Below are positions 29,820 through 42,365 of a DNA stretch of 62,705 nucleotides, piece after piece. The stretch spans positions 1 to 62,705 of IMG/VR virus record IMGVR_UViG_3300045988_178329; one strand, written 5' to 3'. The number at the start of each line of letters is the position of its first letter. The stretch's first letter is position 1. The position numbers and the translations under genes were made by a program. This stretch comes from a virus. The notes under the pieces were generated by a model that was not told where the DNA came from, did not search any database, and saw nothing but the letters and a program-made list of their open reading frames with translations.

Positions 29820-30164
29820 ATGGGAAAGGTGATGAAAGTCGGTATATGTAAATATACCGGAGGATATGGATTGTTCGAATTGAGGATCAGGACGAGGGAA
29901 GGGACGATTTGCTGGAAGGTCGACATTGACGAATTCATGAACGGTTGGTTCTCGCTTAGGGAGGACAATCGGAAAAGGGTTCACAGGGCGAGGTGGAACG
30001 GATATATCGACGAATGGGAGAGGAGGCATGGAAGGGAGATGCCAAGGGAGGTAGCCGAGGCGGTGTCAGGGTGGATGCTGGTGCCGAGTACCCTTGAAAG
30101 GGTTGGAAAAAGGCGCGGACATGGTGTAGAATGGTTGATGAGAAGGAAGGTGATGGAGAGATGA
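29820..30164 (+). CDS. hypothetical protein (114 aa)
   Basis: ORF with ribosome-binding site. Confidence 0.45.
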   Translation: MGKVMKVGICKYTGGYGLFELRIRTREGTICWKVDIDEFMNGWFSLREDNRKRVHRARWNGYIDEWERRHGREMPREVAEAVSGWMLVPSTLERVGKRRGHGVEWLMRRKVMER

Positions 30165-30598
30165 AGGAAAACCCATTGGTAGAGATGTTCGACAGGCCTG
30201 CCGAGTGGAAGCTGGACAGGAAGAGGTACCCATGGCTATCCGACAAGGAGGTTGGGTTCCTCGAATCCATGCCGTTCGACTATGGGAACATAATGGCTGC
30301 CGTCAGTTACTTCCTCACCAAGGAACAGGTGGCTGAGAGGCTACTGACTACGGAGGAGGAGTTGGACAAGTATTGTCAGACATTGTGGAATAGGGACTTT
30401 AATAGCGTGTATACAGTGCTAATGAAAAAAGCCAAAGAAACCGGTATTGACACCTTCAAGTGGTTTGCCAATAAGGGAAATGCCACTGCCCTCTCCATAA
30501 TGGCTCACTCCATCATGAAGCTTGATAGGGAGGACAATGACAAGTCGCTGAAGGTTACCATTGTCAATGACCTTCCAGACATGGGTAATGGGAAATGA
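30131..30598 (+). CDS. hypothetical protein (155 aa)
   Basis: ORF. Confidence 0.45.
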   Translation: MVDEKEGDGEMKENPLVEMFDRPAEWKLDRKRYPWLSDKEVGFLESMPFDYGNIMAAVSYFLTKEQVAERLLTTEEELDKYCQTLWNRDFNSVYTVLMKKAKETGIDTFKWFANKGNATALSIMAHSIMKLDREDNDKSLKVTIVNDLPDMGNGK

Positions 30599-31272
30599 TC
30601 CTCCAGGACTTGCGCAAGAAGGACGCGTTCCTCTCTTCCGTCGATGAAGAGCAAAGGGACGCCATGGAACTCCTCTATGGCGAGAGTGGGAAGATGATTA
30701 ACAAGCAATCGTTCTCCCAGGCCATAATGGGATCGGAGGCGTTTGCCAAGAGTTCACCACTGATAAGGCCAAAGGTATCCGTACTCAGAAAGCCACTGTC
30801 GCTTGATGAGGATTCGGACAGCAGGGTTGACCTATTTCAGACCGACGGACATTACTACGTAACCTATAACAACGAGTTCAGCTACGAATATCTCTGCAAC
30901 CCGGAAAAGGTGAAGGAGATGCCGTTTGTGGTATCTGGGGACATATTCACTACGAATTCAAGGGTTCCCAATAGGTATCGCGACTACTACCACCTGATGG
31001 CAATGGGGAAACTGATACCGATGCTTGGCACCGTGCTTGAGTTCTCAAACATCTCGAAGGACCTGTTCTTCATGGCTAGGAGAAATCCGATGGTAAGGTT
31101 TCCGTTCTGTTTCGACTTCGTTCGCTATGAGGAGGAAGTTGGTCAGACGCACTTCGTTACCAGAGACCTCTATGGAAAGCAGATAGACTTCGAGAAGGCA
31201 CGGAGCAGCAATCCGGCATACATGTATAGGATCAAGCATGGTCTTGACCCGGTAACCAAGGAGAAGATGTGA
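30595..31272 (+). CDS. hypothetical protein (225 aa)
   Basis: ORF. Confidence 0.5.
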   Translation: MILQDLRKKDAFLSSVDEEQRDAMELLYGESGKMINKQSFSQAIMGSEAFAKSSPLIRPKVSVLRKPLSLDEDSDSRVDLFQTDGHYYVTYNNEFSYEYLCNPEKVKEMPFVVSGDIFTTNSRVPNRYRDYYHLMAMGKLIPMLGTVLEFSNISKDLFFMARRNPMVRFPFCFDFVRYEEEVGQTHFVTRDLYGKQIDFEKARSSNPAYMYRIKHGLDPVTKEKM

Positions 31273-31273
31273 T

Positions 31274-32923
31274 ATGGAATTGACAAAGTACCTAGACACG
31301 ATTGCGTTGTCCTGCCTGGGTTTGCAGAAGGCACCCACCCCACTTGAGCTAGAGAAGGCGGTGTTCACGAACGATTTGGAGGGTGTCCTCCACTATAGGC
31401 TTGCAGAAGGCCGTGCATGGTATTCCGCAGATGACGACGAGATACTTGCCTTCTACAACTATTCGGAGAGGGTGGAGTACAATACCGAACCATATAGGTA
31501 CAAGAACAAGCGTTCGTTCTTCTGGGCACGTTCATCACTCGAGGACGAGATGAAGAGGACGCACAGTGGCTTTGCCCGGGATATTGTCGATACAGACGTT
31601 GCACTCCTTGGGCTTCCTAGGATTAAGGTTGGCGTAAAGAGGAAGCCAGATAGCGACCTTATCGACAGGAAGTACCCAACGCTTGACGGGAAGAAGCCAC
31701 AGGAAGCACTTGATGACATAATGGAATACAATGACCTTCCAAGAATGGTTCAGGAAGAGCAGGAACCACTTACCCTGGTAGACGGTTGGGGGGCGTTCAA
31801 GATTACATGGGGAGAGGAAGCTGACGTGCCTCTAGTCCACTACTATGGCGGAGAGAGGGTTAGGATACACTCCAGGGGAAGCTCCGTATTCGGTATGACA
31901 TTCCTTGACTGGTATTCAGATGCACAGGGGAAGAGATACCTCATAGCCGAGACTAGGCTAATGAAGGACGGAAGGGGAATGATACGCTATAACTGCTTTA
32001 GGGACATCGGAAACGGGACCTTGGCTCCGCTTAGCAGGGAAGAGGCTGCGTTCTTCACCAAGGCGCAGGACCTGGATGACCTGCCGTGCCTATTTGCCGT
32101 TCCTACCTCGTTCTATGCGGACACCCAGAATGGACTTCCGGGAAGAAGCATCTTCAATGGCAAGTACAGTGTCTTTGATGACATAGACCAGGCGTTCTCC
32201 CAATGTGCAAATGCCATTAGGCGTTCCACCCCGGTAGAGAAGTTCGACCTCGACTATTGCGAAAGGGACAAGGATGGCATTGCAAGGATGCCTAAGCTCT
32301 TCGAAAGGAGGTACATTGGAATCCGTGGAATGAAGAACGCCTATGGTGAGAAGTCTGGGGACGATCCGGTAACCGTATCCCAGCCAAGGCTAGACATAGA
32401 AATGTATGTCCGTGCAATAGAACTCAATATGAGGAAGGCAATTAACGGACATTTGTCCCCTACTACCATAGGGCTTGATACCGAGAGGAAGGACAATGCG
32501 GACGCCCAGAGGGAATCCGAGAAGATAACAATCTTCACCATGAAGCATCTTGCAGGTAGGGAAAAGAGGATCCTGGAAAGACTAGCGAACCAACTCCTCA
32601 TCGCCTATGAATACATAACTGCCAAGAACCACGTAATCACCTGCGATGACTATGGTGTCAGTGTCGAGTATGATGAGTTCGGCAACCAGAGCTTCGAATC
32701 CAAGATAACCACACTTGCGACAGTACTTGCAAATGATGGCATATCACCTTCAATGTATGTCTCCAAGGTATATGGAGATTCCATATCAGAGGCAGACAGG
32801 AAGGAGGAAATCAAGTGGCTGGAATCCAAGCACACGCTCGAAACCCCCACCGTGCAAGGCGATAGTAGGGGGAAGGAAGGAAACCTCGACGGACTGCTTG
32901 ATGAAATCGGGGACGGTGAATGA
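31274..32923 (+). CDS. putative portal protein
   Basis: 549 aa, no Walker motifs, immediately upstream of the Mu F/SPP1 gp7-like minor head gene, which is the classic gene order. Confidence 0.4.
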   Translation: MELTKYLDTIALSCLGLQKAPTPLELEKAVFTNDLEGVLHYRLAEGRAWYSADDDEILAFYNYSERVEYNTEPYRYKNKRSFFWARSSLEDEMKRTHSGFARDIVDTDVALLGLPRIKVGVKRKPDSDLIDRKYPTLDGKKPQEALDDIMEYNDLPRMVQEEQEPLTLVDGWGAFKITWGEEADVPLVHYYGGERVRIHSRGSSVFGMTFLDWYSDAQGKRYLIAETRLMKDGRGMIRYNCFRDIGNGTLAPLSREEAAFFTKAQDLDDLPCLFAVPTSFYADTQNGLPGRSIFNGKYSVFDDIDQAFSQCANAIRRSTPVEKFDLDYCERDKDGIARMPKLFERRYIGIRGMKNAYGEKSGDDPVTVSQPRLDIEMYVRAIELNMRKAINGHLSPTTIGLDTERKDNADAQRESEKITIFTMKHLAGREKRILERLANQLLIAYEYITAKNHVITCDDYGVSVEYDEFGNQSFESKITTLATVLANDGISPSMYVSKVYGDSISEADRKEEIKWLESKHTLETPTVQGDSRGKEGNLDGLLDEIGDGE

Positions 32924-33669
32924 ATAGGGACGTAGCTAGGGGAACCAAGGGGACGCTGCTCGCACTGGGCACGTCCCTTTTCTCGGTAGGGACGATCCAA
33001 CATGCAAGGAAGAGCGTCTATGCTTACCTAACCTCCACCGTGCAATGGGCGGATTCCATTGGGCTGCATGGGGTACTGGAAGCTGCCATATCGGTGGCTA
33101 GGACCTATGTAGGGAGGAAGTTGGAGTTCGAGCCAACCTCATTCATGCAGATGGCGTTCCCTAGAATCGTCAAGGCGTTCAACCGTGCAAATAGGCGTAG
33201 GTGGGTTAGGACTAGGAAACTGGACGTAGCCAATACGCTGCGACTTGGGCTTGGTGCCGATAGGGTATTCTTCCTTGTATCGAGCCACCAGAACCCACAA
33301 AAGGCACATGCCCCGTTCCAGGGAAGGATCCTCGTCAACAGCCATTGGAGGTCGCTTGGGGAGGGTTACCGTGCAAGGGTCGGATCGTATGTTAGGAACA
33401 GGAAGGTAATGTCTGTGCAAAGGGCAATGCGTGAACCGTATTACCTGTTCGTCAGACCAAACTGCATGCACTACCTGATTCCACTTGACACAGAAGAAGT
33501 GCTCAGTTCTTCCCCTACTGCCGTTGCAAGGAGGCACCGTGCAACCGAGAGAAGGGTTCGTAGGCCATATACGGACAAGCAACTGTATAGGCAGCGTAGG
33601 GCACTCTACCTCCTAACCCTTGGGTTACTAGAAAAGAAACTTGGGAGAAGTGGGATAAAGGCAAAATGA
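32920..33669 (+). CDS. phage minor head (head morphogenesis) protein, Mu F/SPP1 gp7 family
   Basis: C-terminal ...FQGRILVNSHW...YLFVRPNCMHYLIPL matches the F-like hPNCRC box. Five copies of ACCGTGCAA lie inside this gene. Confidence 0.55.
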   Translation: MNRDVARGTKGTLLALGTSLFSVGTIQHARKSVYAYLTSTVQWADSIGLHGVLEAAISVARTYVGRKLEFEPTSFMQMAFPRIVKAFNRANRRRWVRTRKLDVANTLRLGLGADRVFFLVSSHQNPQKAHAPFQGRILVNSHWRSLGEGYRARVGSYVRNRKVMSVQRAMREPYYLFVRPNCMHYLIPLDTEEVLSSSPTAVARRHRATERRVRRPYTDKQLYRQRRALYLLTLGLLEKKLGRSGIKAK

Positions 33670-33712
33670 AAAAAAGGGTTTGGGATTCAGATCCTAAGCC
33701 CTTTTCCTTTGC
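33668..33712. terminator. bidirectional terminator between convergent modules
   Basis: AAAAAGGGTTTGGG...CCTAAGCCCTTTT hairpin overlapping both stop codons. Confidence 0.5.
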
Positions 33713-34017
33713 GATGAAATCCTCTTTGCCTCCTCTTCGGTTTCCACGAATCGCCCCTTTACATAGTAGTACTTCATACATGTATCCCTGTCTGGGTAGC
33801 CACCGTATTTGTCTGGGCTATCATCTATGAAGCACTCGAACCACTTTGGGGTTTCCCCATCGTAGCCCTCGTACATATGCCCGTAGGCTTCCAGAAACGC
33901 CTCTATGGCCTCTTTTGCAATGTCGATGGATGGAAGTAGCCTCCACCTCCCAATTTGCTCTCCATAGGCCTCAGAATACCTTACAAGGACTGTTGCATCG
34001 TATAGGTATCTATCCAT
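33694..34017 (-). CDS. hypothetical protein (107 aa)
   Basis: ORF on the minus strand. Confidence 0.45.
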   Translation of the reverse strand: MDRYLYDATVLVRYSEAYGEQIGRWRLLPSIDIAKEAIEAFLEAYGHMYEGYDGETPKWFECFIDDSPDKYGGYPDRDTCMKYYYVKGRFVETEEEAKRISSQRKRA

Positions 34018-34198
34018 TGTTTCGCTTTGCCCTCCTTCCCTCGCATATGAAGTCTATCTTTCCCCTCTTGGTGTCGATTACCCTTACATCCCAATTGATG
34101 AGCCTCAGAAGTTTCTTGGCCTTATGGATTGCTGCAATCCTTGTATGGAATATTTCCGTAGGTATTTCAAGCCCTTGGTTAATGATTAGTGAGTACAT
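34010..34198 (-). CDS. hypothetical protein (62 aa)
   Basis: ORF. Confidence 0.35.
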   Translation of the reverse strand: MYSLIINQGLEIPTEIFHTRIAAIHKAKKLLRLINWDVRVIDTKRGKIDFICEGRRAKRNNG

Positions 34199-34203
34199 TT
34201 TCT

Positions 34204-34467
34204 TTACTTAACCTCTCTTACTATCTTTTCGAGAATGATGTTGCCTGTCCTTGTTACATGGTAGGAGAATACGTAAGTCCTACCCTCTTGGATCACATAG
34301 CCAAGTGCAGCATCTGTCTTTGTCTTGGCATTGCTTTCATACCCAGTGGAACTCTCTATTACCGCTGCATAGCGTGGGTTTCCGTAATAGGAGTTGTTTA
34401 GCCTTGTGAGTTCCAAGACCTTGAATGTTCCGTTCATCTTGTTTTTTCCTCCGAACCTTGCTCCCAC
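34204..34467 (-). CDS. hypothetical protein (87 aa)
   Basis: ORF; its sigma70 promoter lies at 34483-34511. Confidence 0.45.
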   Translation of the reverse strand: MGARFGGKNKMNGTFKVLELTRLNNSYYGNPRYAAVIESSTGYESNAKTKTDAALGYVIQEGRTYVFSYHVTRTGNIILEKIVREVK

Positions 34468-34482
34468 TTTGGAAGCATAACC

Positions 34483-34511
34483 ATCTTAAGGGTATTCCAG
34501 AATATTGTCAA
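34483..34511 (-). promoter_or_regulatory. sigma70-like promoter TTGACA-N17-TAAGAT
   Basis: Read on the minus strand; preceded by an AT-rich UP-like tract and a CACCGTGCAA motif at 34565-34574. Confidence 0.55.
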
Positions 34512-34584
34512 GTGTTTTTTAAAAATTTTATTAAAGGTATTAGAAGTAATCGGAGAAACTGTACCACCGTGCAAAACCCTAGCA

Positions 34585-34612
34585 GCAAAAAAAGGGGAGT
34601 GTGTTTCCCCAC
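34585..34612 (-). terminator. rho-independent terminator
   Basis: GGGG-aaacacac-CCCC followed by TTTTTTT on the minus strand. Confidence 0.55.
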
Positions 34613-34615
34613 CCC

Positions 34616-34861
34616 CTAGAGTTCCTCTTCGTAAACCCTATCGATGAACTCCCCTTCTTCTGAACGTTCCTCGATTACGATTTCGGAGTTCGGAAACGGC
34701 TTGCTGCTTTCAAGTTCATCAATTCTGGAATCGACAAAGGCTAGGGCTTCCCTTTCGCTAGGGAAGGAACCAAGCGACATTTCATTGCCGTTTGGTGTCC
34801 CATCTTCCTCGTAGCCTAGTATTACAACCTCGTAAATCATTAGCATACCTCCCATAGCCAT
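34616..34861 (-). CDS. hypothetical acidic protein (81 aa)
   Basis: ORF, Glu/Asp-rich. Confidence 0.45.
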   Translation of the reverse strand: MAMGGMLMIYEVVILGYEEDGTPNGNEMSLGSFPSEREALAFVDSRIDELESSKPFPNSEIVIEERSEEGEFIDRVYEEEL

Positions 34862-35397
34862 CCATCAATGAGGCGTTCCCTATTTGGGTTTAGCCAAACG
34901 ACTTCGCCACTGTACTTGGAATCCACTTCATTTGTGATCCTGAACTTCCCAAGGCTATCGCGTAACGCTCTTGTCATCTTGGCACATGTATCATGGGTTA
35001 GCGTTCCATTTTGGAATACTATGTGTTCGCTAAACTCCATGCCTTCCTCTTCGCTAAACACCTCTATATTACACCCTAGGGAACTTATCTGCCCTAGCGT
35101 AGTTCCCATGAATATTTCAGGGTGTTCCTTGTTGAATTCGTTGTAGTAACTATTCTTGCCAGAAAGCATACAACAATGGACACTCCAAGCACATACACCA
35201 TATGCGTAGAGAACATAACCGTTCGAGGTTTCCTTTATTCCCCCAAACTCATTGTCTACCCTGAAGAAGTGCCTAGCCTTTGGCTTGACATTCTTTAGGT
35301 AGTTATAGTCGCTGTTGTTTAAGGTGGCAAGGAGATATTCAAGAACCTCCCTGTCCTTAGATTTTGCCCTTAATTCGTAGTTGCAATCGTTTGCCAT
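34840..35397 (-). CDS. hypothetical protein (185 aa)
   Basis: ORF. Confidence 0.5.
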   Translation of the reverse strand: MANDCNYELRAKSKDREVLEYLLATLNNSDYNYLKNVKPKARHFFRVDNEFGGIKETSNGYVLYAYGVCAWSVHCCMLSGKNSYYNEFNKEHPEIFMGTTLGQISSLGCNIEVFSEEEGMEFSEHIVFQNGTLTHDTCAKMTRALRDSLGKFRITNEVDSKYSGEVVWLNPNRERLIDGWLWEVC

Positions 35398-35775
35398 TTA
35401 TCTATCCTCCTTGGATTTGATTTCTTCCCTTTCCTTGTCTAACCACTTCTTTAAGGCTTCCCCATCAAATTCGGAAACCATTTTCTTTAGGTTGCCTAGA
35501 TACCTACTTGATTCTGCTAAGTTGCAACCCTTTAGGTAGTGCATGAAGTAGTACTCCACTTGGCTACCGTATTGGTAACGGATAAGGTAGTAGCCACTTG
35601 TTAGGATGCCATTGTATTCAGCGACTAGGTGATCTTGAACCAATTCTTTTTTGATGTCCCTTCCAATATTCCAAGAAGAGTTGTCCCAATTCCTGAAGGT
35701 ACGTTCTAGAGTTTCGGTTGGTTGGGGTATTCCTTCATAGCCCCCAATCGCCTTTAGTTCGGTTTTGATGTGCAT
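35398..35775 (-). CDS. hypothetical protein (125 aa)
   Basis: ORF; promoter TTGACA-N17-TAAGAT at 35808-35836. Confidence 0.5.
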   Translation of the reverse strand: MHIKTELKAIGGYEGIPQPTETLERTFRNWDNSSWNIGRDIKKELVQDHLVAEYNGILTSGYYLIRYQYGSQVEYYFMHYLKGCNLAESSRYLGNLKKMVSEFDGEALKKWLDKEREEIKSKEDR

Positions 35776-35807
35776 GTTCTATGCTCCTTTTCTTCCCCTA
35801 TGGCAAT

Positions 35808-35836
35808 ATCTTAAGTCACTTTGAAATTTGTGTCAA
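35808..35836 (-). promoter_or_regulatory. sigma70-like promoter TTGACA-N17-TAAGAT
   Basis: Canonical spacing on the minus strand. Confidence 0.55.
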
Positions 35837-35889
35837 TAAAAATTTTAAAAAAAGTTTAAACGATATATATGTGTACGCAGAAATCCACC

Positions 35890-36040
35890 CACCGTGCAAT
35901 TAGGAAAGGGGCGCAGATGTCTCTCTTGTGTGGTTATATTTCTCTAAGGACTGCCTACGGTGGGGACAGCAAGGTCTAGTGAGTGGCATACCCATTTCTC
36001 CGATTCTATGGGTAGGGGAAGGATGACCACTTGCACGGTA
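35890..36040. repeat. Inverted-repeat-flanked intergenic unit: CACCGTGCAA, about 130 bp, then TTGCACGGTA
   Basis: 10-bp terminal inverted repeats. The unit sits between the terminator of 36083..36706 and the promoter of 35398..35775. Confidence 0.7.
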
Positions 36041-36043
36041 ACT

Positions 36044-36078
36044 CTTAAAAAGAGTAGGGGAGTTTTGCCCTCCCCCTT
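36044..36078 (-). terminator. rho-independent terminator
   Basis: GGGAG-ggcaaaa-CTCCC followed by a T-run on the minus strand. Confidence 0.5.
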
Positions 36079-36082
36079 TTCC

Positions 36083-36706
36083 CTAGTGGAACTTGAAATA
36101 AACCGACTGCCCTTTTCTTAATGTCCAGCAGGCTAGGCACTCTGGGCAACTCCCACCGCATGGAATGGCGGTCTCTGGGATTTTCGGATTCATCTCCGCT
36201 TTTTTAAAGAACACATAGGCAACGGGGAACTTGTAGGGGTTGTCCACCTTGAACGCCTTAGACCATGCAGAGAACACGATTCTTAAGTTGCTAGGTATCT
36301 TCCCACCGTTTGCAACGTAGCCGTTTACTATGTCAAACTTCTTTGTAAAGCATAGGAACCTAACGCCCTTGCACTTCCTTGCAACCTCTATCATGCCATC
36401 GAAATAGGAAGCGTCTACGATGTCCCCTACAGAATGCCATCTAAAGTACTTATAGGTAACTAGGGAGTTATTAAGGAACGAGGCTATTTCATCAAAGAAG
36501 CCCCTAGGATCTTCCTTGTAGAACAAGGCGTTTGACATGATGGAATTCTGAACGTTCTTGTAGGTGAAATTGCCCTTTTTGCCGTAGCACCCATGAGCAC
36601 ATGGGGCGTCAGCCCTACAGCTGCATTGTGGGGCGAGGTTTACGCTTGGGATTTGGAATCCCAGTTTTGAGTTTGTGGTTGAGATTTTGACTTGCATAAT
36701 TGCCAC
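36083..36706 (-). CDS. Cys-rich protein (two Cys clusters; putative metal or Fe-S binding)
   Basis: CSCRADAPCAHGCYGKKG and CGGSCPECLACW. Confidence 0.5.
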   Translation of the reverse strand: MAIMQVKISTTNSKLGFQIPSVNLAPQCSCRADAPCAHGCYGKKGNFTYKNVQNSIMSNALFYKEDPRGFFDEIASFLNNSLVTYKYFRWHSVGDIVDASYFDGMIEVARKCKGVRFLCFTKKFDIVNGYVANGGKIPSNLRIVFSAWSKAFKVDNPYKFPVAYVFFKKAEMNPKIPETAIPCGGSCPECLACWTLRKGQSVYFKFH

Positions 36707-36808
36707 TCCTTTTTGATGATTACATTCTAATGCATCCCATTATGGAAGTAAAGAGAAAAATAAAAATTTCCTAAATGAGTTTAGAAGTCATCGAATGTCT
36801 GAAACAAC

Positions 36809-36957
36809 CACCGTGCAATTTGATGATAGGGATGGAAAACGGATTTCAAAAAGTACACCAAACCTTCTGGAGAACTTTTGCTGCTGGGGCAAGAAAAGCG
36901 GATGCCGTTCCACCCCCAATTTTGGGGTATGGGGAAATCCGACCTTGGTTGCACGGA
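36809..36957. repeat. Inverted-repeat-flanked intergenic unit: CACCGTGCAA, about 130 bp, then TTGCACGGA
   Basis: Same architecture as 35890-36040. The overlapping short track ORFs 36775..37209, 36788..37018, 36795..37001 and 36878..37081 are considered spurious. Confidence 0.65.
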
Positions 36958-37149
36958 GCACTTCTTTTCGGTTTCCGAACCATTTCAGACAAAAGAGATA
37001 ACAACACAAGATATGCAAATGCCCCTAGAAATCGTTTCTGGGGCGTTCCTATGCGTTTCGTTTCCCTTTGTGGTAATTTAACGCTCTCTAAAGCCTTAAA
37101 AATGAAAAGCCCCCTTTTTCTAGAGGGCTTAGGGATCTCTTTCCCTTTC

Positions 37150-37641
37150 CTAGTTGGCTTTCTTGATTTCGGCTTCCACCTCCTCCCATTCGCTATCTAT
37201 GAAGTCTAGGGCTTCCTCTAGACCGTAATCGATTCTAGAAACCTCTTTACGGTTATTGTTTAGATAGTCGATGAAAGAATCATCGTTGATTGCCTCAAAC
37301 ACAATATCACTGGTTGACTTGGTTTCTATGTGGCCGTATCCGTTGAGCCTGAAATATTCATCGCTCATGTTTACGCTTCCATAGTAGCAGGCCATTAGGG
37401 CATCCCAATGGCTGCTGAAGGTGTTGTCTATTTCCTCATCGTTAAATTCGATGTAGCAATCGCCTGGGTAGTAGTTTCTTAGATAGTCGTTATAGGCATC
37501 TATGACGTCTTGGCTACTTGCTTCGCCTAGGGCGTCCTTTATGAGCGAACGCTCAAGGTTCTCTGAGGAATCGCTTGGGTAACGATTTTCGGCAATGTAT
37601 TCTGCCATTGCCTTGGGGTTTGTGAGTTTTGATAGGTTCAT
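37150..37641 (-). CDS. hypothetical highly acidic protein (163 aa)
   Basis: Asp/Glu-rich ORF; a promoter with A-tract motif lies upstream. Confidence 0.5.
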   Translation of the reverse strand: MNLSKLTNPKAMAEYIAENRYPSDSSENLERSLIKDALGEASSQDVIDAYNDYLRNYYPGDCYIEFNDEEIDNTFSSHWDALMACYYGSVNMSDEYFRLNGYGHIETKSTSDIVFEAINDDSFIDYLNNNRKEVSRIDYGLEEALDFIDSEWEEVEAEIKKAN

Positions 37642-37667
37642 ATTTGTGTCTCCTTTTCAGACAATAC

Positions 37668-37733
37668 CATTATAGAAAATGGGTAGGGTAAGTAAATAGA
37701 AAAGTTAAATTTTTAGGTTCATTTAAGGTTGGC
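37668..37733 (-). promoter_or_regulatory. Promoter region with A-tract motif AACCTTAAATGAACCTAAAAAT, TTTTCTATTTACTT box and TATAAT
   Basis: Minus-strand copy of the 1643 and 17967 element. Confidence 0.55.
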
Positions 37734-37745
37734 TGAAATTCATGG

Positions 37746-37895
37746 TGCCGTGCAATTATAGGGGGTCAAGGAAGCAATGGAAGGCAATGGCTTCGGATTC
37801 ATTTTCTGGCTCAAAAAGGTAGTAGGGATAACTAGGTGTATATTTTATACAGTCGGTTTTGGGGCACTTGGGGAGGGCTGACTTTTTGCACGGTA
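37746..37895. repeat. Inverted-repeat-flanked intergenic unit: GCCGTGCAA, about 130 bp, then TTGCACGGTA
   Basis: Same architecture as 35890-36040. Confidence 0.65.
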
Positions 37896-37902
37896 CGATG
37901 AT

Positions 37903-37934
37903 ACAAAAAAGGAAGGGTGTTTTCCCTTCCCTTT
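37903..37934 (-). terminator. rho-independent terminator
   Basis: GGAAGGG-aaaaca-CCCTTCC followed by TTTTTT on the minus strand. Confidence 0.65.
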
Positions 37935-37939
37935 CAGAC

Positions 37940-38278
37940 TTAATTATCGGTTTCTTCCAACACTTCTTCAATCGCCTTTTGGCAATCTTCCTTGTTAGCA
38001 TAGAAGCCTACAAATGGGTGATACCAGTAAGATCCGACTTCGGCAATTCTCTCTATTGCAAAGTCATCTTCATTTTCATCTTCTTCGGTTTCATAGACTG
38101 TGAAATCATATTCATCGGGTGTGGTGATTTCAACGTTGTTATAGGACTTGTATATCTTTGGATCAAGTTCATCGAATATGGAATCCAATGAATAGAATTC
38201 CCCTTCATAGACAACCTTGTTGTTGTTTCCATAGTCGGTGATTTTAATTGTTTTGCTCTTCATATTTTTTCCTTTCAT
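37940..38278 (-). CDS. hypothetical highly acidic protein (112 aa)
   Basis: ORF rich in Glu/Asp. Confidence 0.5.
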   Translation of the reverse strand: MKGKNMKSKTIKITDYGNNNKVVYEGEFYSLDSIFDELDPKIYKSYNNVEITTPDEYDFTVYETEEDENEDDFAIERIAEVGSYWYHPFVGFYANKEDCQKAIEEVLEETDN

Positions 38279-38332
38279 TGTATGGGAGCTACGGCTTTTG
38301 CATAGCCCCTAGAATTTGTTCGTAGGCAACGC

Positions 38333-38593
38333 CTACATATGTTTTAGGGTGAAACAGTAATCCTTCCAGAAATCTAGAAGGTTTAACTTGTTGTCATACT
38401 TTTCGATGATGTCAGAAATGTCTATTCTTTCATCAAAATGTTGTAGGAAGTAGAGGTATTCATCAAAGAAGTCATAGACTTCGTTTTCGTCAATACCGAA
38501 ACGATTAGAGTAATCGACAGTCATTATGGAATTGAGTGTAACATCTTCCCTAAGCTTGATTACTTGAGATGGCATGAGGTCTTGAATGTGCAT
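38333..38593 (-). CDS. hypothetical protein (86 aa)
   Basis: ORF; promoter TTGACA-N16-TAGAAT at 38622-38649. Confidence 0.45.
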   Translation of the reverse strand: MHIQDLMPSQVIKLREDVTLNSIMTVDYSNRFGIDENEVYDFFDEYLYFLQHFDERIDISDIIEKYDNKLNLLDFWKDYCFTLKHM

Positions 38594-38621
38594 ATTGTTC
38601 CCCCTTTCTTGGGATACACTA

Positions 38622-38649
38622 ATTCTACCATTAACGATATAGTTGTCAA
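38622..38649 (-). promoter_or_regulatory. sigma70-like promoter TTGACA-N16-TAGAAT
   Basis: Minus strand. Confidence 0.5.
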
Positions 38650-38712
38650 TAGGAAAATTAAAAAAAGTTTACAATGATTAGTTCTGAACGGACTTTTTCC
38701 GCGGAATAATGG

Positions 38713-38871
38713 CACCGTGCAACTCAATTGGTTGCCATGTGTGGATTTGGTTTTCTACAAGGTCAGAAGCCTTTCGGCTACCCTTTGCTTCCGTTTGCTT
38801 TTCGCCTACCATAGGCAGCGGTGGAAATGGTGGAGTGGAAGAATTCCCTACCCGATCGGACTTGCACGGTA
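38713..38871. repeat. Inverted-repeat-flanked intergenic unit: CACCGTGCAA, about 140 bp, then TTGCACGGTA
   Basis: Same architecture as 35890-36040. Confidence 0.65.
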
Positions 38872-38917
38872 GCCCCTAGGAAAAAAAGCGCCCTAGGTTT
38901 TTCTAGAGCGTCTTTCC

Positions 38918-39631
38918 CTAAAATGTAATGTTGCTTCTAAACAAGGCTATTACAGGTGTTTCCTCAAAGTTTTTTGTATCGGTACTAACTATGTTTGCAA
39001 CGTATTCGTTTTCGAATTCGCTACTTGGTCCAGAAACAATTCTTATGTACTTTCTACCTAGGTTCTTGGCAACCTTTATTAAATCTTCGAGTTTGCTAAC
39101 GGAAAAGAGCCTATCTATAGTTTGCTCATAGTTTTGGTGGAAGAAACTAAGCTCTACATCATCGAATTCAACATTGTCAAAATATACAACGTCTTTTTCG
39201 ATGGCTTCTAACAAAGAGAAAGAGGCGTATTGTATGCCGTTATGCTTTAGCAACAACAATGTTCTGTAATCACATTCGATCTGGAAATCAAATTCGTACT
39301 TTGGGAAGTTTTTCAACATTTCAGATAGTTTCTTGGTGTTTAGGTCAATTCTGAAATTCTTGCTTACATAGGCTCTGAAAACCTTATGCAAAGGTAGGCA
39401 ATACCTAGTTGAAAAGACATGTATGCAATTTTTGTCCTTTTCGCCTATAATGCTAATTTTACTTTTCATTTCTCCATTCATTTCGCAATTCTGGGAAAAG
39501 GCAACTAGGGTGGAAATGAATTCTTTGTGGGTGGTTAGCCCAAAGTCGGCGGAGGTTTCTTCGAAACCTTGTACCTTGTCAAAGGAAGGTGCTAAGCTTT
39601 CCTTGACTTGGTTAACTGTAAGTTTGTCCAT
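38918..39631 (-). CDS. hypothetical protein (237 aa)
   Basis: ORF with AAAGGAG ribosome-binding site; promoter TTGACA-N16-TAGAAT at 39675-39702. Confidence 0.55.
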   Translation of the reverse strand: MDKLTVNQVKESLAPSFDKVQGFEETSADFGLTTHKEFISTLVAFSQNCEMNGEMKSKISIIGEKDKNCIHVFSTRYCLPLHKVFRAYVSKNFRIDLNTKKLSEMLKNFPKYEFDFQIECDYRTLLLLKHNGIQYASFSLLEAIEKDVVYFDNVEFDDVELSFFHQNYEQTIDRLFSVSKLEDLIKVAKNLGRKYIRIVSGPSSEFENEYVANIVSTDTKNFEETPVIALFRSNITF

Positions 39632-39674
39632 TTGTTCTACTCCTTTAAATGGGTGTTCCTTTTGGAACGATATA

Positions 39675-39702
39675 ATTCTACCATTTCAGATATATGTGTC
39701 AA
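39675..39702 (-). promoter_or_regulatory. sigma70-like promoter TTGACA-N16-TAGAAT
   Basis: Minus strand. Confidence 0.5.
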
Positions 39703-39738
39703 TACTTTTTTAAAACAAAGATTACAATGTATAGTAGC

Positions 39739-39893
39739 CACCGTGCTATTTTTGAAATGGGGTAACGGAAACCCCAGATTTGCAAATGGTGGGAAAACCA
39801 CCTTTCAAAAAACAATAGTCAAAATATAAGCTTAGGAAAATGACACCCCAAATTGTCTAGGGTAGAAAAAAAAGGGGGGTACCTTGCACGGTG
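39739..39893. repeat. Inverted-repeat-flanked intergenic unit: CACCGTGCTA (degenerate), about 135 bp, then TTGCACGGTG
   Basis: Same architecture as 35890-36040. Confidence 0.6.
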
Positions 39894-40027
39894 GCGGATC
39901 CCTGAAATTCTGGAAGCTTTGAAAAATTTTTATAGGGATGTCTGAAACGAGGAAAACCCATAAAAACGGTTTCTAGGCGTTCCTAGGGCTTTTCAGTGTG
40001 GTTAATATAATTTTCCAAACAACAAAA

Positions 40028-40078
40028 GAAAACGCCCCTAGGGGCTTAAAAAAGAGCCGTTTTTTAATTCGGCTCTCT
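40028..40078 (-). terminator. tandem rho-independent terminators
   Basis: AGAGCCG-loop-CGGCTCT followed by TTTTTT, then the palindromic hairpin GCCCCTAGGGGC. Confidence 0.65.
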
Positions 40079-40088
40079 TCCTTAGTTT

Positions 40089-40508
40089 TTAATATCCTAA
40101 ATCTATTACATTTTGTAAAGTTAGGTAAATTATTAATTTAAGCATGAAATCCATTTTATCTTTATTCCATGTTTTCATTTCTTCATCGGTTGCTTCTAGA
40201 ATGTTTCCTAGAATTTCAATAGGCGATTCGGAGTAGTTGAGAATCTTAGGTTTTTTTCCTAGCCATTCTATGAAAGCATCGCTATAAGAGCCATTTTTTA
40301 GACTATATGGATTAAACGGATTAAATTTTACTTCTTCTTCAAATGTTCTATTTATTGCAAGTGCATAATCTCTAAAATCATTAGGGTTATATAATTCGGT
40401 TTTGTCTAGGTGGGTATGTTCCAAGATGAACTTTCTTAATTTTTGGATGGCTTTTGGTGAATTTGCTCTAATCATAATTTTTTCTCTTTCCAAGGGGGCT
40501 TTTTTCAA
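40089..40508 (-). CDS. paralog family C member (139 aa)
   Basis: N-terminus MIRANSPKAIQKLRKFILEH, paralogous to 40522..40896. Confidence 0.5.
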   Translation of the reverse strand: MKKAPLEREKIMIRANSPKAIQKLRKFILEHTHLDKTELYNPNDFRDYALAINRTFEEEVKFNPFNPYSLKNGSYSDAFIEWLGKKPKILNYSESPIEILGNILEATDEEMKTWNKDKMDFMLKLIIYLTLQNVIDLGY

Positions 40509-40521
40509 GCCCCCTATTTCT

Positions 40522-40896
40522 TTATTTAATCGCCTTTCTTACTCTTCTATAAATCATATATGATAATAGGCTTTCGGCTTGGGTTTCGCTAAACCTTGCT
40601 TTTTCTTCCTTGGTTTCTTCCAATATATCGCCTAGGGTTTCAACGGCTGAAACATTGTAATAATAGGAAGTGTCTATAATTGATGGCAACCATTGCAACC
40701 AACTAATGAACGCTTCTTGTTCATTTTGTCTTCTTTCAGATGGGGTGGAGTATACCTCTTTAACGAATTCATCATAGATGGCTTTCATACATTCGTTAGG
40801 GGTGGATGGGGTGAAGTCATAGCCATCAAAGTCGCATCCATCTAAGATGAACTTCTCTAAATTGGCTTGGGCTTTTTTTGAGTTTGTTCTAAGCAT
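40522..40896 (-). CDS. paralog family C member (124 aa)
   Basis: N-terminus MLRTNSKKAQANLEKFILDG; promoter TTGACA-N17-TAACAT at 40924-40952. Confidence 0.5.
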   Translation of the reverse strand: MLRTNSKKAQANLEKFILDGCDFDGYDFTPSTPNECMKAIYDEFVKEVYSTPSERRQNEQEAFISWLQWLPSIIDTSYYYNVSAVETLGDILEETKEEKARFSETQAESLLSYMIYRRVRKAIK

Positions 40897-40923
40897 GATT
40901 TTAACCTCCCTGCTTATGAGAAG

Positions 40924-40952
40924 ATGTTAAACCCATTTCTAAAAGTTGTCAA
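40924..40952 (-). promoter_or_regulatory. sigma70-like promoter TTGACA-N17-TAACAT
   Basis: Minus strand. Confidence 0.5.
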
Positions 40953-41013
40953 TACTTTTTTTAAAACTTTTTTAATACTCCTAGAAATCATCTACACTTT
41001 TTCAGACATCCTT

Positions 41014-41059
41014 TTGCACGGACTAGGGTTTTTGCACGGAGCTTACCTTGTTGCACGGC
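41014..41059. repeat. Three direct copies of TTGCACGG at 18-19-bp spacing
   Basis: TTGCACGGA at 41014 and 41032, TTGCACGGC at 41051. On the minus strand they sit between the terminator of 41104..41325 and the promoter of 40522..40896. Confidence 0.7.
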
Positions 41060-41071
41060 TTTTCTGGGTAA

Positions 41072-41103
41072 TGGAAAAAGAGGGGTTTGTTGTCCCTCCC
41101 TTT
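41072..41103 (-). terminator. rho-independent terminator
   Basis: GAGGG-acaacaaac-CCCTC followed by TTTTT on the minus strand. Confidence 0.5.
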
Positions 41104-41325
41104 TCAGATACCTTCCACACCGTCTAGACCGTCAAGGAACTCTTGGCAAATGGAAGCGGTATCGTCTAACCATTCTTGCCTTTGGCTTTGGGCTTCGGTT
41201 AGTTCGCTTCTTCCTTCATAGGGTTCAATGTCATTGCTAACTTGTTCAATGTGTGATTTGAGAGTGTCAACTATGTTGTAGACACTTCTCAACATTTTGA
41301 TGAAATAGGTTTTTGAGTAAGTCAT
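41104..41325 (-). CDS. hypothetical acidic protein (73 aa)
   Basis: ORF; the upstream region carries four phased AACCT(T)AAA repeats. Confidence 0.45.
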   Translation of the reverse strand: MTYSKTYFIKMLRSVYNIVDTLKSHIEQVSNDIEPYEGRSELTEAQSQRQEWLDDTASICQEFLDGLDGVEGI

Positions 41326-41382
41326 TTTGTGTTCTCCTTTGAACGTCTATATTATATAAAAGTCAATAGAAAAATAAAACAC

Positions 41383-41426
41383 CTTTTAGGTTGATTTAAG
41401 GTTCTTTAAGGTTCATTTTAGGTTGT
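41383..41426 (-). promoter_or_regulatory. Four phased A-tract repeats (AACCTAAAATG, AACCTTAAAG, AACCTTAAATC, AACCTAAAAGG; 10-11-bp period) upstream of a promoter
   Basis: Helically phased A-tracts of the UP-element or curved-DNA type. A CACCGTGCAA-family motif lies at 41440-41449. Confidence 0.55.
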
Positions 41427-41496
41427 CTGAAAAAGCTACTTGCACGGTAACGGATCCATTGAAAAACCCTAGGTTTCCCTAGGGCTTGGGTTTGGA

Positions 41497-41767
41497 TTAG
41501 AAATAACAAGCGTTTCTATATTCCTTCAACATTCTATATTTGTCCTTACCGCAATAGATATGTTGGTCTTTGTATTCTTCCTCTACCAAGCGAGTTTCGA
41601 AGCCATCGAAGAAGTTCATTACTTCCTCTTCATCAATGCCATATTGGTTCTTGTAGCCCCTTCCACCGATGAAATCATTGATGGTGATTTCAAGGTAGAG
41701 ATTCCAAAGTGCATCATTTGGTAAATCACCGATTGTGATTTTTGGGGGTGTTGTTTTCTTTTTCCAT
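41497..41767 (-). pseudogene. frameshifted gene: ATG with strong ribosome-binding site, 13 codons, stop, then continuation in the +1 frame across a C5A5 run
   Basis: On the minus strand: AAAGGGAG-N7-ATG GAA AAA GAA AAC AAC ACC CCC AAA AAT ... TGA. The adjacent frame reads ITIGDLPNDALWNLYLEITINDFIGGRGYKNQYGIDEEEVMNFFDGFETRLVEEEYKDQHIYCGKDKYRMLKEYRNACYF with no start codon of its own. Confidence 0.4.
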
Positions 41768-41814
41768 TTTGTTTTCTCCCTTTGAAACCCCTATTTTTAC
41801 CCCTATTTGATTTC

Positions 41815-42000
41815 TTACCTATCTAGCGACAATTCCACTTGGAACCATGATTTCGCTTCGCCTTTGGACTTAGCCTTAGCCCAAATCCACCTAATCCATT
41901 CGATATGGTTTCCTAGGGGCTTTTCATAGCCTATGGCTTTCTTAGCCCTTAGCAAGGTTTTTTGGTAAGCCTTGACTTGTTTGTTTGTTTCTAGTTTCAT
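41815..42000 (-). CDS. hypothetical basic protein (61 aa)
   Basis: ORF; promoter TTGACT-N16-TATCAA at 42014-42041. Confidence 0.4.
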   Translation of the reverse strand: MKLETNKQVKAYQKTLLRAKKAIGYEKPLGNHIEWIRWIWAKAKSKGEAKSWFQVELSLDR

Positions 42001-42055
42001 AACCCAAACTCCTTTGATAAGAAAAGTTTAAGGAAAGTCAATGATTTTGTAAACA

Positions 42056-42122
42056 TCTTTTAGGTTATTTTTAGGTTGATTTAAGGTTGGACAATTGCCA
42101 GAAACCCATACTTGCACGGTGG
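42056..42122 (-). promoter_or_regulatory. A-tract repeat block (AACCTTAAATCAACCTAAAAATAACCTAAAAG) plus CCACCGTGCAAG motif
   Basis: Same element family as 41383; lies downstream of the terminator at 42130-42160. Confidence 0.5.
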
Positions 42123-42129
42123 CCAGACA

Positions 42130-42160
42130 ATAAAAAATGGGAAGCGTTTTGCTTTCCCAT
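42130..42160 (-). terminator. rho-independent terminator
   Basis: GGGAAAGC-aaaac-GCTTCCC followed by ATTTTTT on the minus strand. Confidence 0.6.
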
Positions 42161-42170
42161 TTGCCTCGCT

Positions 42171-42365
42171 TCATTCGCCTCCTATTAGGCGTTTTGGGTT
42201 GCCTAGCGCCCTTTGAAGTAGTCTTACTTGTGATTCGTTCTCCAAGCGCCAAACAACCTTAGTATGAGATTTGTCAAGCCTTGTTTCAGACATTATCAAA
42301 TCGGCTAGGCATCTATGGGCATAACTCCCCATTTGGTAATTGTTTAAGATTGCGTTTACTTTCAT
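42171..42365 (-). CDS. hypothetical protein (64 aa)
   Basis: ORF with AAAGGAG ribosome-binding site. Confidence 0.4.
   Translation of the reverse strand: MKVNAILNNYQMGSYAHRCLADLIMSETRLDKSHTKVVWRLENESQVRLLQRALGNPKRLIGGE

Follow-up and report, generated by a model that had tools for sequence, protein, structure and literature searches.

The window analysed here, a stretch of 62,705 nucleotides, is a complete circular phage genome (∼62.65 kb) whose head-gene module is split by an island of early genes. To the left of the island lie two plus-strand late genes. The portal gene (31274-32923) was identified by tblastn matches to annotated portal proteins and has homologues in all relatives, and it is followed by the gene for a minor head protein of the SPP1 gp7/Mu F-like type (32920-33669), whose homologues share 40-92% identity and in one case gave a faint match to PF06152 (Phage_min_cap2). 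Directly upstream of the portal gene is a plus-strand gene (30595-31272) encoding a 225-aa protein with no assigned function. The island itself (33694-42985, minus strand), recognized from its ORFs, promoter matches, and terminators, consists of single- or few-gene early cassettes, most of which carry their own sigma-70-type promoter and hairpin terminator; its best promoter matches are near-consensus and all lie on the minus strand. No other region runs counter to the prevailing direction of transcription, the portal and minor-head genes converge on the island, and its gene content is hypervariable, differing between lineages.

A short, asymmetric motif with the consensus R-CCGTGC-AA, here called the box, is repeated across this region. 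The information in the motif is limited to 8-9 bp, with almost none at the flanking positions, and a scan of the array showed the box to be nearly without degenerate copies; a strictly invariant site of this length is uncommon for a transcription factor and commoner among motifs read by translocases. The exact 9-mer ACCGTGCAA was found 15 times in the window against 0.32 expected, a number reached by none of 100 shuffles. All 22 copies of CCGTGCAA and all 29 CCGTGC cores fall inside 31.0-43.9 kb, and the remaining 49.6 kb of the window contains no core where 5.8-9.9 would be expected; the core is similarly absent from the flanks outside the array in relatives. The array is 10-13 kb long and comprises at least 23 copies in the window (23-29 depending on the definition of the box), the last two bases of which vary by lineage as AA, TC, or WA. 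The motif string returned primer-type matches only from the literature, no Rfam family matched the array region, and a tRNA scan gave none.

The sequence-only reading had listed five copies of the motif within the portal and minor-head genes. All five exist and all are on the plus strand, although the start coordinates given for them were off by up to 12 nt, and a further copy and the core-only matches at 31031, 31411, and 32084 were absent from that list. The first copy of ACCGTGCAA (32849-32857, with the box CCGTGCAA at 32850-32857) is at the portal C-terminus and is read TVQ. The other four are in the minor-head gene: 33037-33045 (box 33038-33045), read TVQW; 33182-33190 (box 33183-33190), read NRAN; 33368-33376 (box 33369-33376), read YRAR; and 33536-33544 (box 33537-33544), read HRAT, the last three using the rare Arg codon CGT. 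These are the reading frames that had been claimed. The sixth coding copy, in which CCGTGCAA occurs as TCCGTGCAA, lies in the portal gene at 32410-32417 (plus strand) and is read VRAI. Together the six form the plus-oriented left arm of the array, which runs ∼2.5 kb into the two late genes; in all, 6-9 box copies of the window are inside coding sequence. The portal gene also holds core-only CCGTGC matches at 31411 and 32084 (both plus strand), the outermost core on the left is at 31031-31036 (plus strand), and further core-only matches are found at 31198, 43291, and 43890 (all minus strand). The first four copies (boxes at 32850, 33038, 33183, and 33369) have a box at the homologous position in two relatives, L011 and L014, whereas the fifth (33537) is confined to the lineage of the window.

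Comparison of the portal and minor-head genes across lineages revealed 106 sense copies of the box versus three in antisense. The coding copies occupy at least 45 alignment positions and all three reading frames, and the codons that they impose are rare ones, GTG accounting for 11% of Val codons and CGT for 9% of Arg codons. At the codon level, synonymous choice lets homologues encode identical residues in a form that contains the box or in one that does not: a conserved P-V-Q is CCC GTG CAA in the AT-rich lineages that bear boxes and CCT GTA CAA in the lineages that lack them. In L011 and L014, three to four box positions are kept exactly at ∼50% amino-acid identity. Given the three frames, the many positions, and the rare or synonymous codons, we conclude that the constraint acts on the DNA rather than on the protein, as had been proposed from the window alone. 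The sense bias across lineages, combined with this codon usage, likewise makes the proposed polar DNA-level function well supported, for the coding arm only.

The rest of the array had been placed in the minus-strand module, and box positions from 34567 to 42496 bear this out. The leftmost island box (34567-34574, plus strand) lies in a spacer just after the terminator at 34595-34616, and 56 bp separate it from the downstream -35 hexamer of a minus-strand promoter (34511-34483). Between 35892 and 39891 are five convergent pairs, each composed of a plus box and a minus box 139-148 bp apart: 35892-36038 (plus 35892-35899, minus 36031-36038), 36811-36956 (plus 36811-36818, minus 36949-36956), 37748-37893 (plus 37748-37755, minus 37886-37893), 38715-38869 (plus 38715-38722, minus 38862-38869), and 39741-39891 (plus variant CCGTGCTA at 39741-39748, minus 39884-39891). 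The first pair is flanked by the promoter at 35836-35808 on one side and the terminator at 36056-36076 on the other, and its spacer is neither conserved nor significantly folded. Six minus copies follow between 41014 and 42496. Three of these are in tandem (41014-41058, starting at 41014, 41032, and 41051), after the terminator of the gene at 41104-41325; the promoter at 40952-40924 has its -35 hexamer 62 bp downstream of them. The box at 41440-41447 comes 14 nt after a terminator T-run and is followed by phased A-tracts and the promoter of the gene at 41104-41325; that at 42112-42119 comes 12 nt after a terminator T-run, with A-tracts and the promoter at 42053-42025 downstream of it; and that at 42489-42496 is ∼10 nt after the stop codon of the gene at 42509-42985 and upstream of the promoter at 42420-42392.

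The island boxes thus occupy the spacers between the terminator of one cassette and the sigma-70 promoter of the next, in either orientation, abutting these elements without overlapping them. A T-run ends at most 20 nt before 46% of the 250 island boxes (most often 10-17 nt before), compared with 12% of random positions, and for 51% a strong sigma-70 promoter follows in the next 130 nt; the distance from box to -35 hexamer peaks at 12-13 nt and at 52-66 nt. In orientation, 161 of the 250 are co-oriented and 89 inverted, and the terminator-proximal boxes are divided into 62 co-oriented and 52 inverted. The flanks of the island differ: the 3 kb beyond the downstream end of island transcription hold 8-10 boxes, and the 3 kb on the upstream side 0-1. 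The position at terminator/promoter junctions in either orientation, which had been missed earlier, suggests a boundary or regulatory element to which a protein binds. The convergent pairs might have delimited a noncoding RNA or a MITE, but we rejected this idea, as the 130-bp interiors of the five pairs show no relationship to one another (54% column identity) and the pairs share only their 9-bp ends; the folding z-scores of the interiors are mostly near zero on both strands. Nor was a dif-like site evident at the center of the array, where the orientation switch falls in different cassettes in each lineage.

The core is shared by at least 15 related lineages with the same layout, despite portal identities of 32-54% and GC contents of 29-55%. 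These are uncultured phages recurring in gut and rumen metagenomes, and the contig of one relative was binned in an "uncultured Clostridia" MAG. A nucleotide search of a phage collection gave no match, the portal protein is at best ∼25% identical to those of Clostridium and Anaerostipes phages, a plasmid collection provided nothing informative, and a motif-pair scan of viral contigs yielded, besides a close relative, chance matches only and no arrays. Three relatives without the island have 0-1 copy and no array, and the comparison of relatives shows that the array follows the presence of the island, not the terminase. Canonical parS is absent from the window; it is present in relatives.

The arrangement of the boxes varies among the relatives. 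Opposed groups, plus on the left and minus on the right, are seen in the window and most relatives, but this pattern fails in L051, where boxes are nearly all plus and the inverted box is 12-13 nt from the -35 hexamer, and in L029, where the island boxes are all minus and lie at a fixed 33-35 nt from the -10 hexamer; in other lineages the orientations are interleaved within the island. Helical phasing of box-promoter distances was considered and set aside: L029 and L026 keep a tight spacing of 33-35 nt to the -10 hexamer, but other lineages do not generally do so. The cassette arrangement itself is reversed between the window ("<-cassette->") and L034 ("->cassette<-"). L029 has island boxes and no coding arm, which shows that at least one lineage can do without the latter. 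L026 possesses a bidirectional terminator at the convergent junction, yet the coding arm is present. Relative to the window, the 94%-identical relative L001 shows cassette indels: a cassette that it lacks has its left junction on the plus box at 38713-38722 and its right junction on the plus box at 39739-39748, and a 1.3 kb insertion in L001 has its junction on the tandem minus box starting at 41032 (junction 41032-41044).

Judging from sequence comparisons, we tentatively propose that the boxes are sites for a sequence-specific DNA-binding protein, probably phage-encoded and tied to the hypervariable early-cassette island, a reading to which we give slightly less than an even chance. The bound protein would mark or insulate the cassette boundaries and the junction of convergent late and early transcription. 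Orientation is free in the untranscribed spacers and fixed in the transcribed genes, which suggests an asymmetric protein-DNA complex, one that probably affects a tracking enzyme (most simply RNA polymerase) differently from its two sides. Polymerases reading the essential late genes in the sense direction could then get through, and antisense polymerases from the island would be blocked. Inside the island, both orientations of the terminator-proximal boxes and the reversed cassette arrangement leave a strictly polar roadblock unsupported.

An orientation-dependent block of this kind would be analogous to the repressor/stoperator sites of cluster A mycobacteriophages, with no claim of family membership. 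In those phages, monomeric repressors bind asymmetric multi-copy sites, and orientation matters for blocking elongation (PMC9283540). As with the stoperators of the L5 gp71-type repressor, there are many copies of a short asymmetric site with one reader, located at promoters and away from them (PMC9283540); orientation is tied to the direction of transcription in transcribed DNA, and the site consensus varies between phage lineages. The two differ in that the box is 8-9 bp rather than 13-14 bp, the boxes are confined to 10-13 kb around one island whereas stoperators (>20 copies) are genome-wide, about half of the boxes are inside coding sequence instead of short intergenic gaps, and orientation is mixed inside the island.

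The 225-aa protein encoded upstream of the portal gene is a circumstantial candidate for the box-binding protein. Its family is present at 15 of 15 array-bearing loci and at none of three array-less loci, and it contains a conserved segment, SNxSxxLFxIARxNP. Its distribution fits that of the arrays, but we could not adopt it as the reader because it showed no Pfam, PDB, or large-terminase homology and its AlphaFold model was unusable (pLDDT 38). A GP88-family gene (36083-36706), conserved in 12 lineages, was also considered and set aside because it occurs in unrelated phages without arrays; its predicted structure shows no DNA-binding fold, and the structures it matched, weakly and below significance, were mostly TIM-barrel and radical-SAM enzymes. 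Searches of the candidates against Pfam, PHROGs, and NCBIfam for a binding protein provided no match, and no repressor homologue was recognized among the scanned ORFs.

Other readers of the boxes can be envisaged, and the Ter-like, Chi-like, and recombination-site readings are possible but weaker than the protein-bound boundary. The replication or recombination hotspot and the protected or targeted site suggested from the sequence alone may also apply, and two cassette indel junctions do fall on boxes. Oriented, multi-copy sites are typical of polar replication-fork barriers (Tus-Ter, RTP-Ter, and the TTF-I/Reb1/Fob1 barriers of rDNA), which would here halt forks arriving from one side and thereby confine the meeting of forks or avoid head-on collisions between the replisome and the strong, oppositely directed transcription of the island. 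The window has two opposed groups, plus on the left and minus on the right, around the one region transcribed against the rest of the genome; its boxes follow closely on the 3' ends of transcription units, ∼10-17 nt after a T-rich termination element, much as rDNA-type barriers do at the ends of strongly transcribed units; the core is absent elsewhere, as a barrier would predict; and the phage encodes its own primase-helicase, SSB, exonuclease, and annealing protein. We nevertheless consider a fork barrier unlikely. Because island orientation differs by lineage (all plus in L051, all minus in L029, interleaved in others), no single polarity lets forks cross every island, and terminator-proximal copies occur in both orientations; in addition, the box is much shorter than the ∼20-30 bp Ter sites, the scanned ORFs gave no match to the Tus or RTP families, neither an origin nor a terminus was located in the window, and GC skew follows the gene strand and is uninformative. 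The gap at 6.0-6.8 kb, examined as an origin opposite the array, turned out to be coding (an XRE-type HTH gene and another ORF). Lower still is the probability we assign to a motif read by a translocase, such as Chi by AddAB/RecBCD or the KOPS/SRS octamers by FtsK/SpoIIIE, which would serve DNA protection or recombination at breaks in or near the island, or the steering of a translocase to it. The box shares with these octamers its length, exactness, asymmetry, near lack of degenerate copies, and presence in both coding and noncoding DNA, and the oppositely oriented arms of the window and the cassette exchange junctions on boxes fit as well. Known Chi sequences vary between genera, however, and the same core is found in phages of 29-55% GC with probably different hosts, which argues against a host-specific motif. 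Moreover, the boxes are clustered and excluded from the remaining genome rather than enriched throughout it, the array reaches into one flank only, the boxes are placed precisely at terminator/promoter junctions, and the putative cos region is ∼15 kb off, so the genome ends would not be protected by them.

Of similarly low probability is the suggestion that the boxes are crossover sites for the gain and loss of cassettes, by a recombinase or by microhomology. Like integron attC sites, the PeSLs of T4-like phages, and lambdoid "boundary sequences," they lie between mobile, variable single-gene cassettes; every cassette is bounded by boxes, two indels between the window and L001 have junctions exactly on boxes, and the boxes persist through rapid turnover of gene content. 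Against this, the boxes extend into essential genes, where a site-specific recombinase acting on the 8-10 direct repeats of the portal and minor-head genes would cause lethal deletions; the scan of ORFs turned up neither a recombinase nor an integrase. The pairs 139-148 bp apart also lack the internal pairing and hairpin architecture of attC (57-141 bp, with R and L boxes), their unrelated interiors mostly folding no lower than shuffled sequence, and the cassettes bring their own near-consensus promoters whereas those of integrons are mostly promoterless. Recombination at boxes is better read as a by-product, the box being the only sequence shared by otherwise unrelated spacers. We regard as very unlikely a role for the coding copies in the transcript or the non-template strand, as an endoribonuclease or RNA-binding site tuning portal and minor-head expression or as an ops-like pause. 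The 106 to 3 sense bias would follow automatically from such a role, but the island boxes occur in both orientations and, being between terminators and promoters, are mostly untranscribed; there was no Rfam family match and no conserved structure around the boxes, and one reader acting on DNA would explain both sets of boxes more simply than two different ones. Finally, packaging recognition had been suggested, in which the boxes would be pac or cos sites for terminase. Small-terminase recognition regions can hold several short repeats inside coding DNA, and the array begins beside the portal gene. This proposal is not supported and is extremely improbable: the genes for an HNH endonuclease, a putative small terminase, and the large terminase occupy 14.4-17.7 kb, ∼15 kb from the array, and the 13 kb around them are free of boxes; the terminase genes are at 15.6-17.7 kb and the nearest core at 31031, whereas pac and cos repeats lie in or beside the small-subunit gene and the cleavage site; the array is 10-13 kb long with both orientations in the window and most relatives; and the island-less relatives keep terminase and portal but have no array.

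To return to the protein-bound boundary, a more specific form of it, which we consider doubtful but possible, is a dedicated insulator in which the asymmetric complex would be a one-way barrier to RNA polymerase, the replisome, or both, fencing the island. Such an insulator would be written through synonymous codons into coding sequence, where hairpin terminators are impossible, and repeated at every cassette boundary; the fenced island would comprise rapidly exchanging early, possibly anti-defense, genes transcribed against the rest of the genome. If true, the insulator would be a previously undescribed genome-organizing element of a large clade of uncultivated gut and rumen phages.

The coding arm provides an unusually clear natural case in which selection on DNA sequence overrides codon preference within essential phage genes, the same 6-9 bp box having been gained at at least 45 codon positions, in one orientation (106 versus 3), in genomes of 29-55% GC. 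As a cis-element that travels with the hypervariable island, the box therefore makes it simple to locate such islands, and the points where they end, from sequence. Reading by a translocase or a recombinase would explain cassette swapping. Should the box act as an orientation-dependent barrier, it would illustrate a way for phages to insulate converging early and late transcription, or replication, without terminators, and it would extend the stoperator principle beyond the actinobacteriophages.

The five repeats that the sequence-only reading had noticed at the end of the portal gene and in the minor-head gene are real: exact copies of ACCGTGCAA lie at positions 32849, 33037, 33182, 33368, and 33536, all on the plus strand, and the start coordinates originally assigned to them were wrong by up to 12 nt. 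The reading frames reported for these copies hold, with TVQ encoded at the end of the portal gene (31274-32923) and TVQW, NRAN, YRAR, and HRAT in the minor-head gene (32920-33669). That observation nevertheless understates the array, of which the five copies form one arm only. The group is extended by a sixth coding copy at 32410 (VRAI) and by three core-only copies farther left. Within the window, the 9-mer ACCGTGCAA occurs 15 times in comparison to 0.32 copies expected, a count reached by 0 of 100 shuffled sequences. The 8-mer CCGTGCAA is present in 22 copies together with one variant, CCGTGCTA, and all 23 are located within 32410-42496. The 6-mer core of this asymmetric box, CCGTGC, occurs 29 times, exclusively within 31031-43895, and is absent from the other 49.6 kb of the window, where 5.8 to 9.9 copies were expected (Markov models of order 1 to 3).

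The first and last ~50 bases of the window are identical (1-55 versus 62651-62705), indicating a circular assembly and a complete genome of ~62.65 kb. Nearly all of the genes are carried on the plus strand. Genes for an exonuclease, a Sak-type annealing protein, SSB, and a primase-helicase lie at 7-12 kb, those for an HNH endonuclease, a putative small terminase, and the large terminase at 14.4-17.7 kb, the portal and minor-head genes at 31.3-33.7 kb (plus strand), and the scaffold, major capsid, and tail genes from 43.4 kb; two DNA methyltransferases are also encoded. A 9.3-kb island of small genes on the minus strand (33.7-43.0 kb) separates the minor-head and scaffold genes. Most island genes possess their own near-consensus sigma-70 promoter and hairpin terminator, often with phased A-tracts upstream of the promoter, and family searches returned no recognizable protein family for almost all of them. 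The cassette at 41480-41767 (minus strand) has a normal ribosome-binding site and ATG, but its frame is broken by many stop codons; its start region has repeats at 41322, 41764, and 42362, and the cassette appears to carry a decayed gene. Where the island and the scaffold gene diverge (42956-43193), the DNA is very AT-rich. It contains a 21-bp inverted repeat whose arms (42956-42976 and 43173-43193) are 90% complementary, together with a 20-bp hairpin palindrome (42991-43030) and recurring ATATGTAAA words, and may serve as a regulatory region or an origin. Elsewhere, a gene for a 93-residue XRE-type helix-turn-helix protein (6153-6434, plus strand), recognized by eye from its translated N-terminal sequence, is preceded by a terminator and promoter-like sequence at about 6040-6130 and probably marks the start of the early replication/recombination operon.

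No close match to the window was found among catalogued phages. Over 40 related loci, found in metagenomes of gut and rumen, were recovered through protein look-ups, retrieval of contigs, and a single scan of each collection (viral, genome, and metagenome); one of these loci is on a contig binned in an "uncultured Clostridia" MAG. An array with the same core is present in at least 15 distinct lineages, whose portal proteins share between 32% and 54% identity with that of the window and whose GC contents span 29-55%. In each, the array begins in the portal gene and crosses a minus-strand island at the same position; the only lineage-specific difference is in the two bases after the core (AA, TC, or WA). 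The three relatives without an island (L049, L055, and L056), in which the large terminase gene adjoins the portal gene, have at most one copy, so the array goes with the island. The gene content of the island is not conserved between lineages, and the 94%-identical relative L001 differs from the window by cassette indels, with two junctions exactly on boxes. The island spacers of the ~50%-identity relatives also contain perfect canonical parS palindromes (GTTTCACGTGAAAC), one to three per locus (L011:13093-13106 and 15244-15257; L014:12706-12719, 14129-14142, and 14907-14920; also L012 and L015-L017), each displaced from a box by about 25-35 bp toward the promoter. No parS site is present in the window, even with three mismatches allowed; phased A-tract repeats (AACCTAAAA/AACCTTAAA) occupy the equivalent place. 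The palindromes hint that this parS-bearing lineage uses host ParB/SMC or is maintained in a plasmid-like manner.

In the portal and minor-head genes of 13-14 lineages, the core occurs in 106 sense versus 3 antisense copies, which are spread over no fewer than 45 distinct alignment positions and fall in all three frames. Between lineages with only ~50% protein identity, the box is kept exactly in place at portal TVQ and at minor-head TVQW, NRAN, and xRAR; most of the remaining positions are lineage-specific gains. The conserved portal P-V-Q is encoded by CCC GTG CAA in the AT-rich box-bearing lineages versus CCT GTA CAA or CCA GTT CAG in lineages lacking the box, and the window boxes employ GTG and CGT, which account for 11% of Val codons and 9% of Arg codons, respectively. 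The earlier proposal that the constraint acts on the DNA and not on the protein is borne out by this codon-level comparison: synonymous sites are constrained, and the same residues are encoded without the box where it is not kept. DNA-level constraint on the boxes is firmly established.

Along the window, the plus-strand copies in the portal and minor-head genes are followed by one plus-strand copy at 34567, then by convergent pairs, and finally by six minus-strand copies in the right-hand spacers. Five convergent plus/minus pairs, 139-148 bp apart, occupy successive island spacers. The ~130 bp between partners is unrelated from pair to pair and has no significant structure, excluding a repeated RNA gene or MITE between the paired boxes. 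Minus-strand copies in the window spacers lie 8-16 nt past the T-run of the upstream gene's terminator, and each early promoter is preceded by a box at a distance of 39-80 bp from its −35 hexamer. When 250 island boxes from 15 lineages were surveyed, a T-run ended no more than 20 nt upstream (relative to island transcription) for 46% of them, compared to 12% of random positions, with the T-run-to-box distance peaking at 10-17 nt, and a strong sigma-70 promoter was found within 130 nt downstream for 51%. Boxes co-oriented with island transcription numbered 161 and inverted boxes 89; for the terminator-proximal boxes these values were 62 and 52. Compact lineages have the box squeezed between terminator and promoter, as in L029 (T-run, about 10 nt, CCGTGC, a fixed 33-35 nt, and the −10 hexamer) and L051 (T-run, about 10 nt, inverted GCACGG, 12-13 nt, and TTGACA), and lineages with longer spacers have two boxes, one at the terminator and one at the promoter. 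The arrangement of paired boxes varies from convergent and 140 bp apart in the window to divergent with a 24-66 bp separation in L026, L032, and L034. The box adjoins the promoter and its A/T-rich upstream element without overlap. This placement fits a protein bound beside transcription signals and suggests that the box marks a boundary rather than serving as core promoter or operator.

Other repeated words were seen in the spacers. A second module at 36985-37110 and 39930-40040, with shared stretches such as GTTTCT(A/G)GGCGTTCCTA, sits between terminator and box in two cassettes of the window, and short GTCTGAAA words recur close to boxes. Between the paired boxes of the AT-rich relatives L026, L032, and L034, GAATC/GATTC (GANTC-type) and CCAGA/TCTGG words look abundant by eye (uncounted; examples are L034:13900-14030 and L026:16740-16850). 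N6/N4 DNA methyltransferases are encoded by the window, L011, L014-L016, and L018, and methylation-sensitive regulation is conceivable in this phage group.

The array overshoots the island by 2-3 kb on one side, that toward which island transcription heads and where late and early transcription converge; the 3-kb flanks of the island contain 8-10 boxes on the convergent side versus 0-1 on the other. This one-sidedness ties the coding arm to the late/early convergent junction, which in the window is a 25-bp gap without a terminator. The most economical reading of these patterns is a single sequence-specific DNA-binding protein, probably phage-encoded, since the core is constant across very different base compositions and is lost along with the island. 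The protein would bind the asymmetric 8-9 bp box at each cassette boundary and also over the 3'-terminal stretch of the late operon that converges on the island. Because orientation is free in the rarely transcribed spacers and fixed in genes that must be transcribed, we infer that the complex is asymmetric toward RNA polymerase. It would tolerate polymerases that cross the portal and minor-head genes in the sense direction and hinder those leaving the island in antisense, and the array would have an insulating purpose.

Several other readings were weighed against this one. Polar replication barriers are the main alternative and match the geometry in the window, but the polarity is inconsistent across lineages and neither an origin nor a terminus could be located. 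Symmetric processes, such as a fork trap centered on a terminus or Chi sites around a break, would not predict a one-sided array. A Chi-like or KOPS-like motif agrees with the boxes in length and exactness, and the strict invariance of so short a site, which counts against the bound protein that we favor, is more typical of translocase-read motifs; such a motif fits poorly with the exclusion of the core from the rest of the genome, its retention across presumably different hosts, and the placement at junctions. The indel junctions on boxes are those expected of cassette recombination sites, yet ten direct repeats lie within essential genes, no recombinase was found among the ORFs scanned, and attC-like structure is missing. 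A signal acting in RNA or on the non-template strand would account for the sense-only orientation in the coding arm but not for the island copies, which are mostly untranscribed and in both orientations. Packaging recognition, suggested in the sequence-only reading, is disfavored by the position of the terminase genes, ~15 kb away without nearby boxes, and by an array that tracks the island rather than the terminase.

No box-binding protein was found among the candidates examined, and the coding arm is missing in L029; both points count against the bound-protein reading. The gene immediately preceding the portal gene (30595-31272) encodes a 225-residue protein that all 15 array-bearing loci, and none of the 3 array-less ones, possess. 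A conserved segment of this protein is helix-rich; comparisons with Pfam families, PDB chains, and the large terminase revealed no homology, and modeling gave no usable structure. A rearrangement separating the large terminase gene from the portal gene may by itself account for the distribution of the protein. The array-less L049, L055, and L056 have the large terminase directly between a homologue of the 155-residue protein gene and the portal gene, a slot that holds the unrelated 225-residue protein gene in the window (30131-31272 for the 155- and 225-residue protein genes) and all array-bearing relatives. Among array-bearing loci, the large terminase gene (43-44% identical) was located in two, the window (16199-17752) and L018; in both it sits beside an HNH endonuclease gene at a considerable distance ahead of the portal gene, about 14 kb in the window. 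The GP88-family (PF17338) gene at 36083-36706 (minus strand) is the sole widely conserved island gene, occurring in 12 lineages with 50-75% identity, which exceeds that of the portal protein. Members also occur in unrelated array-less phages, beside NAD-salvage genes; in unrelated prophages the neighbors are genes for NAMPT/NAPRTase, a Macro domain, NAD synthase, and RNA ligase. The AlphaFold prediction has high confidence (pLDDT 92), and its PDB matches, mostly TIM-barrel glycosidases plus two radical-SAM enzymes (QueE and BlsE), are all weak and non-significant. Given its presence in array-less phages and only these enzyme-fold matches, the GP88-family protein is not a good candidate for the box-binding protein; it may have an enzymatic role in an early or anti-defence pathway.

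For the bound-protein reading, the nearest known principle is the stoperator, a multi-copy asymmetric repressor site. In cluster A mycobacteriophages, reversal of the site abolishes the block (PMC9283540), and the orientation-dependent block proposed for the box array would resemble this behavior. Unlike stoperators, the boxes are shorter, clustered, and not uniformly oriented in intergenic DNA, and we therefore do not classify them as such. The repeats first noticed in the portal and minor-head genes belong, as one arm, to an oriented array of boxes that is conserved across a broad clade of uncultivated phages and accompanies a hypervariable island of early genes.
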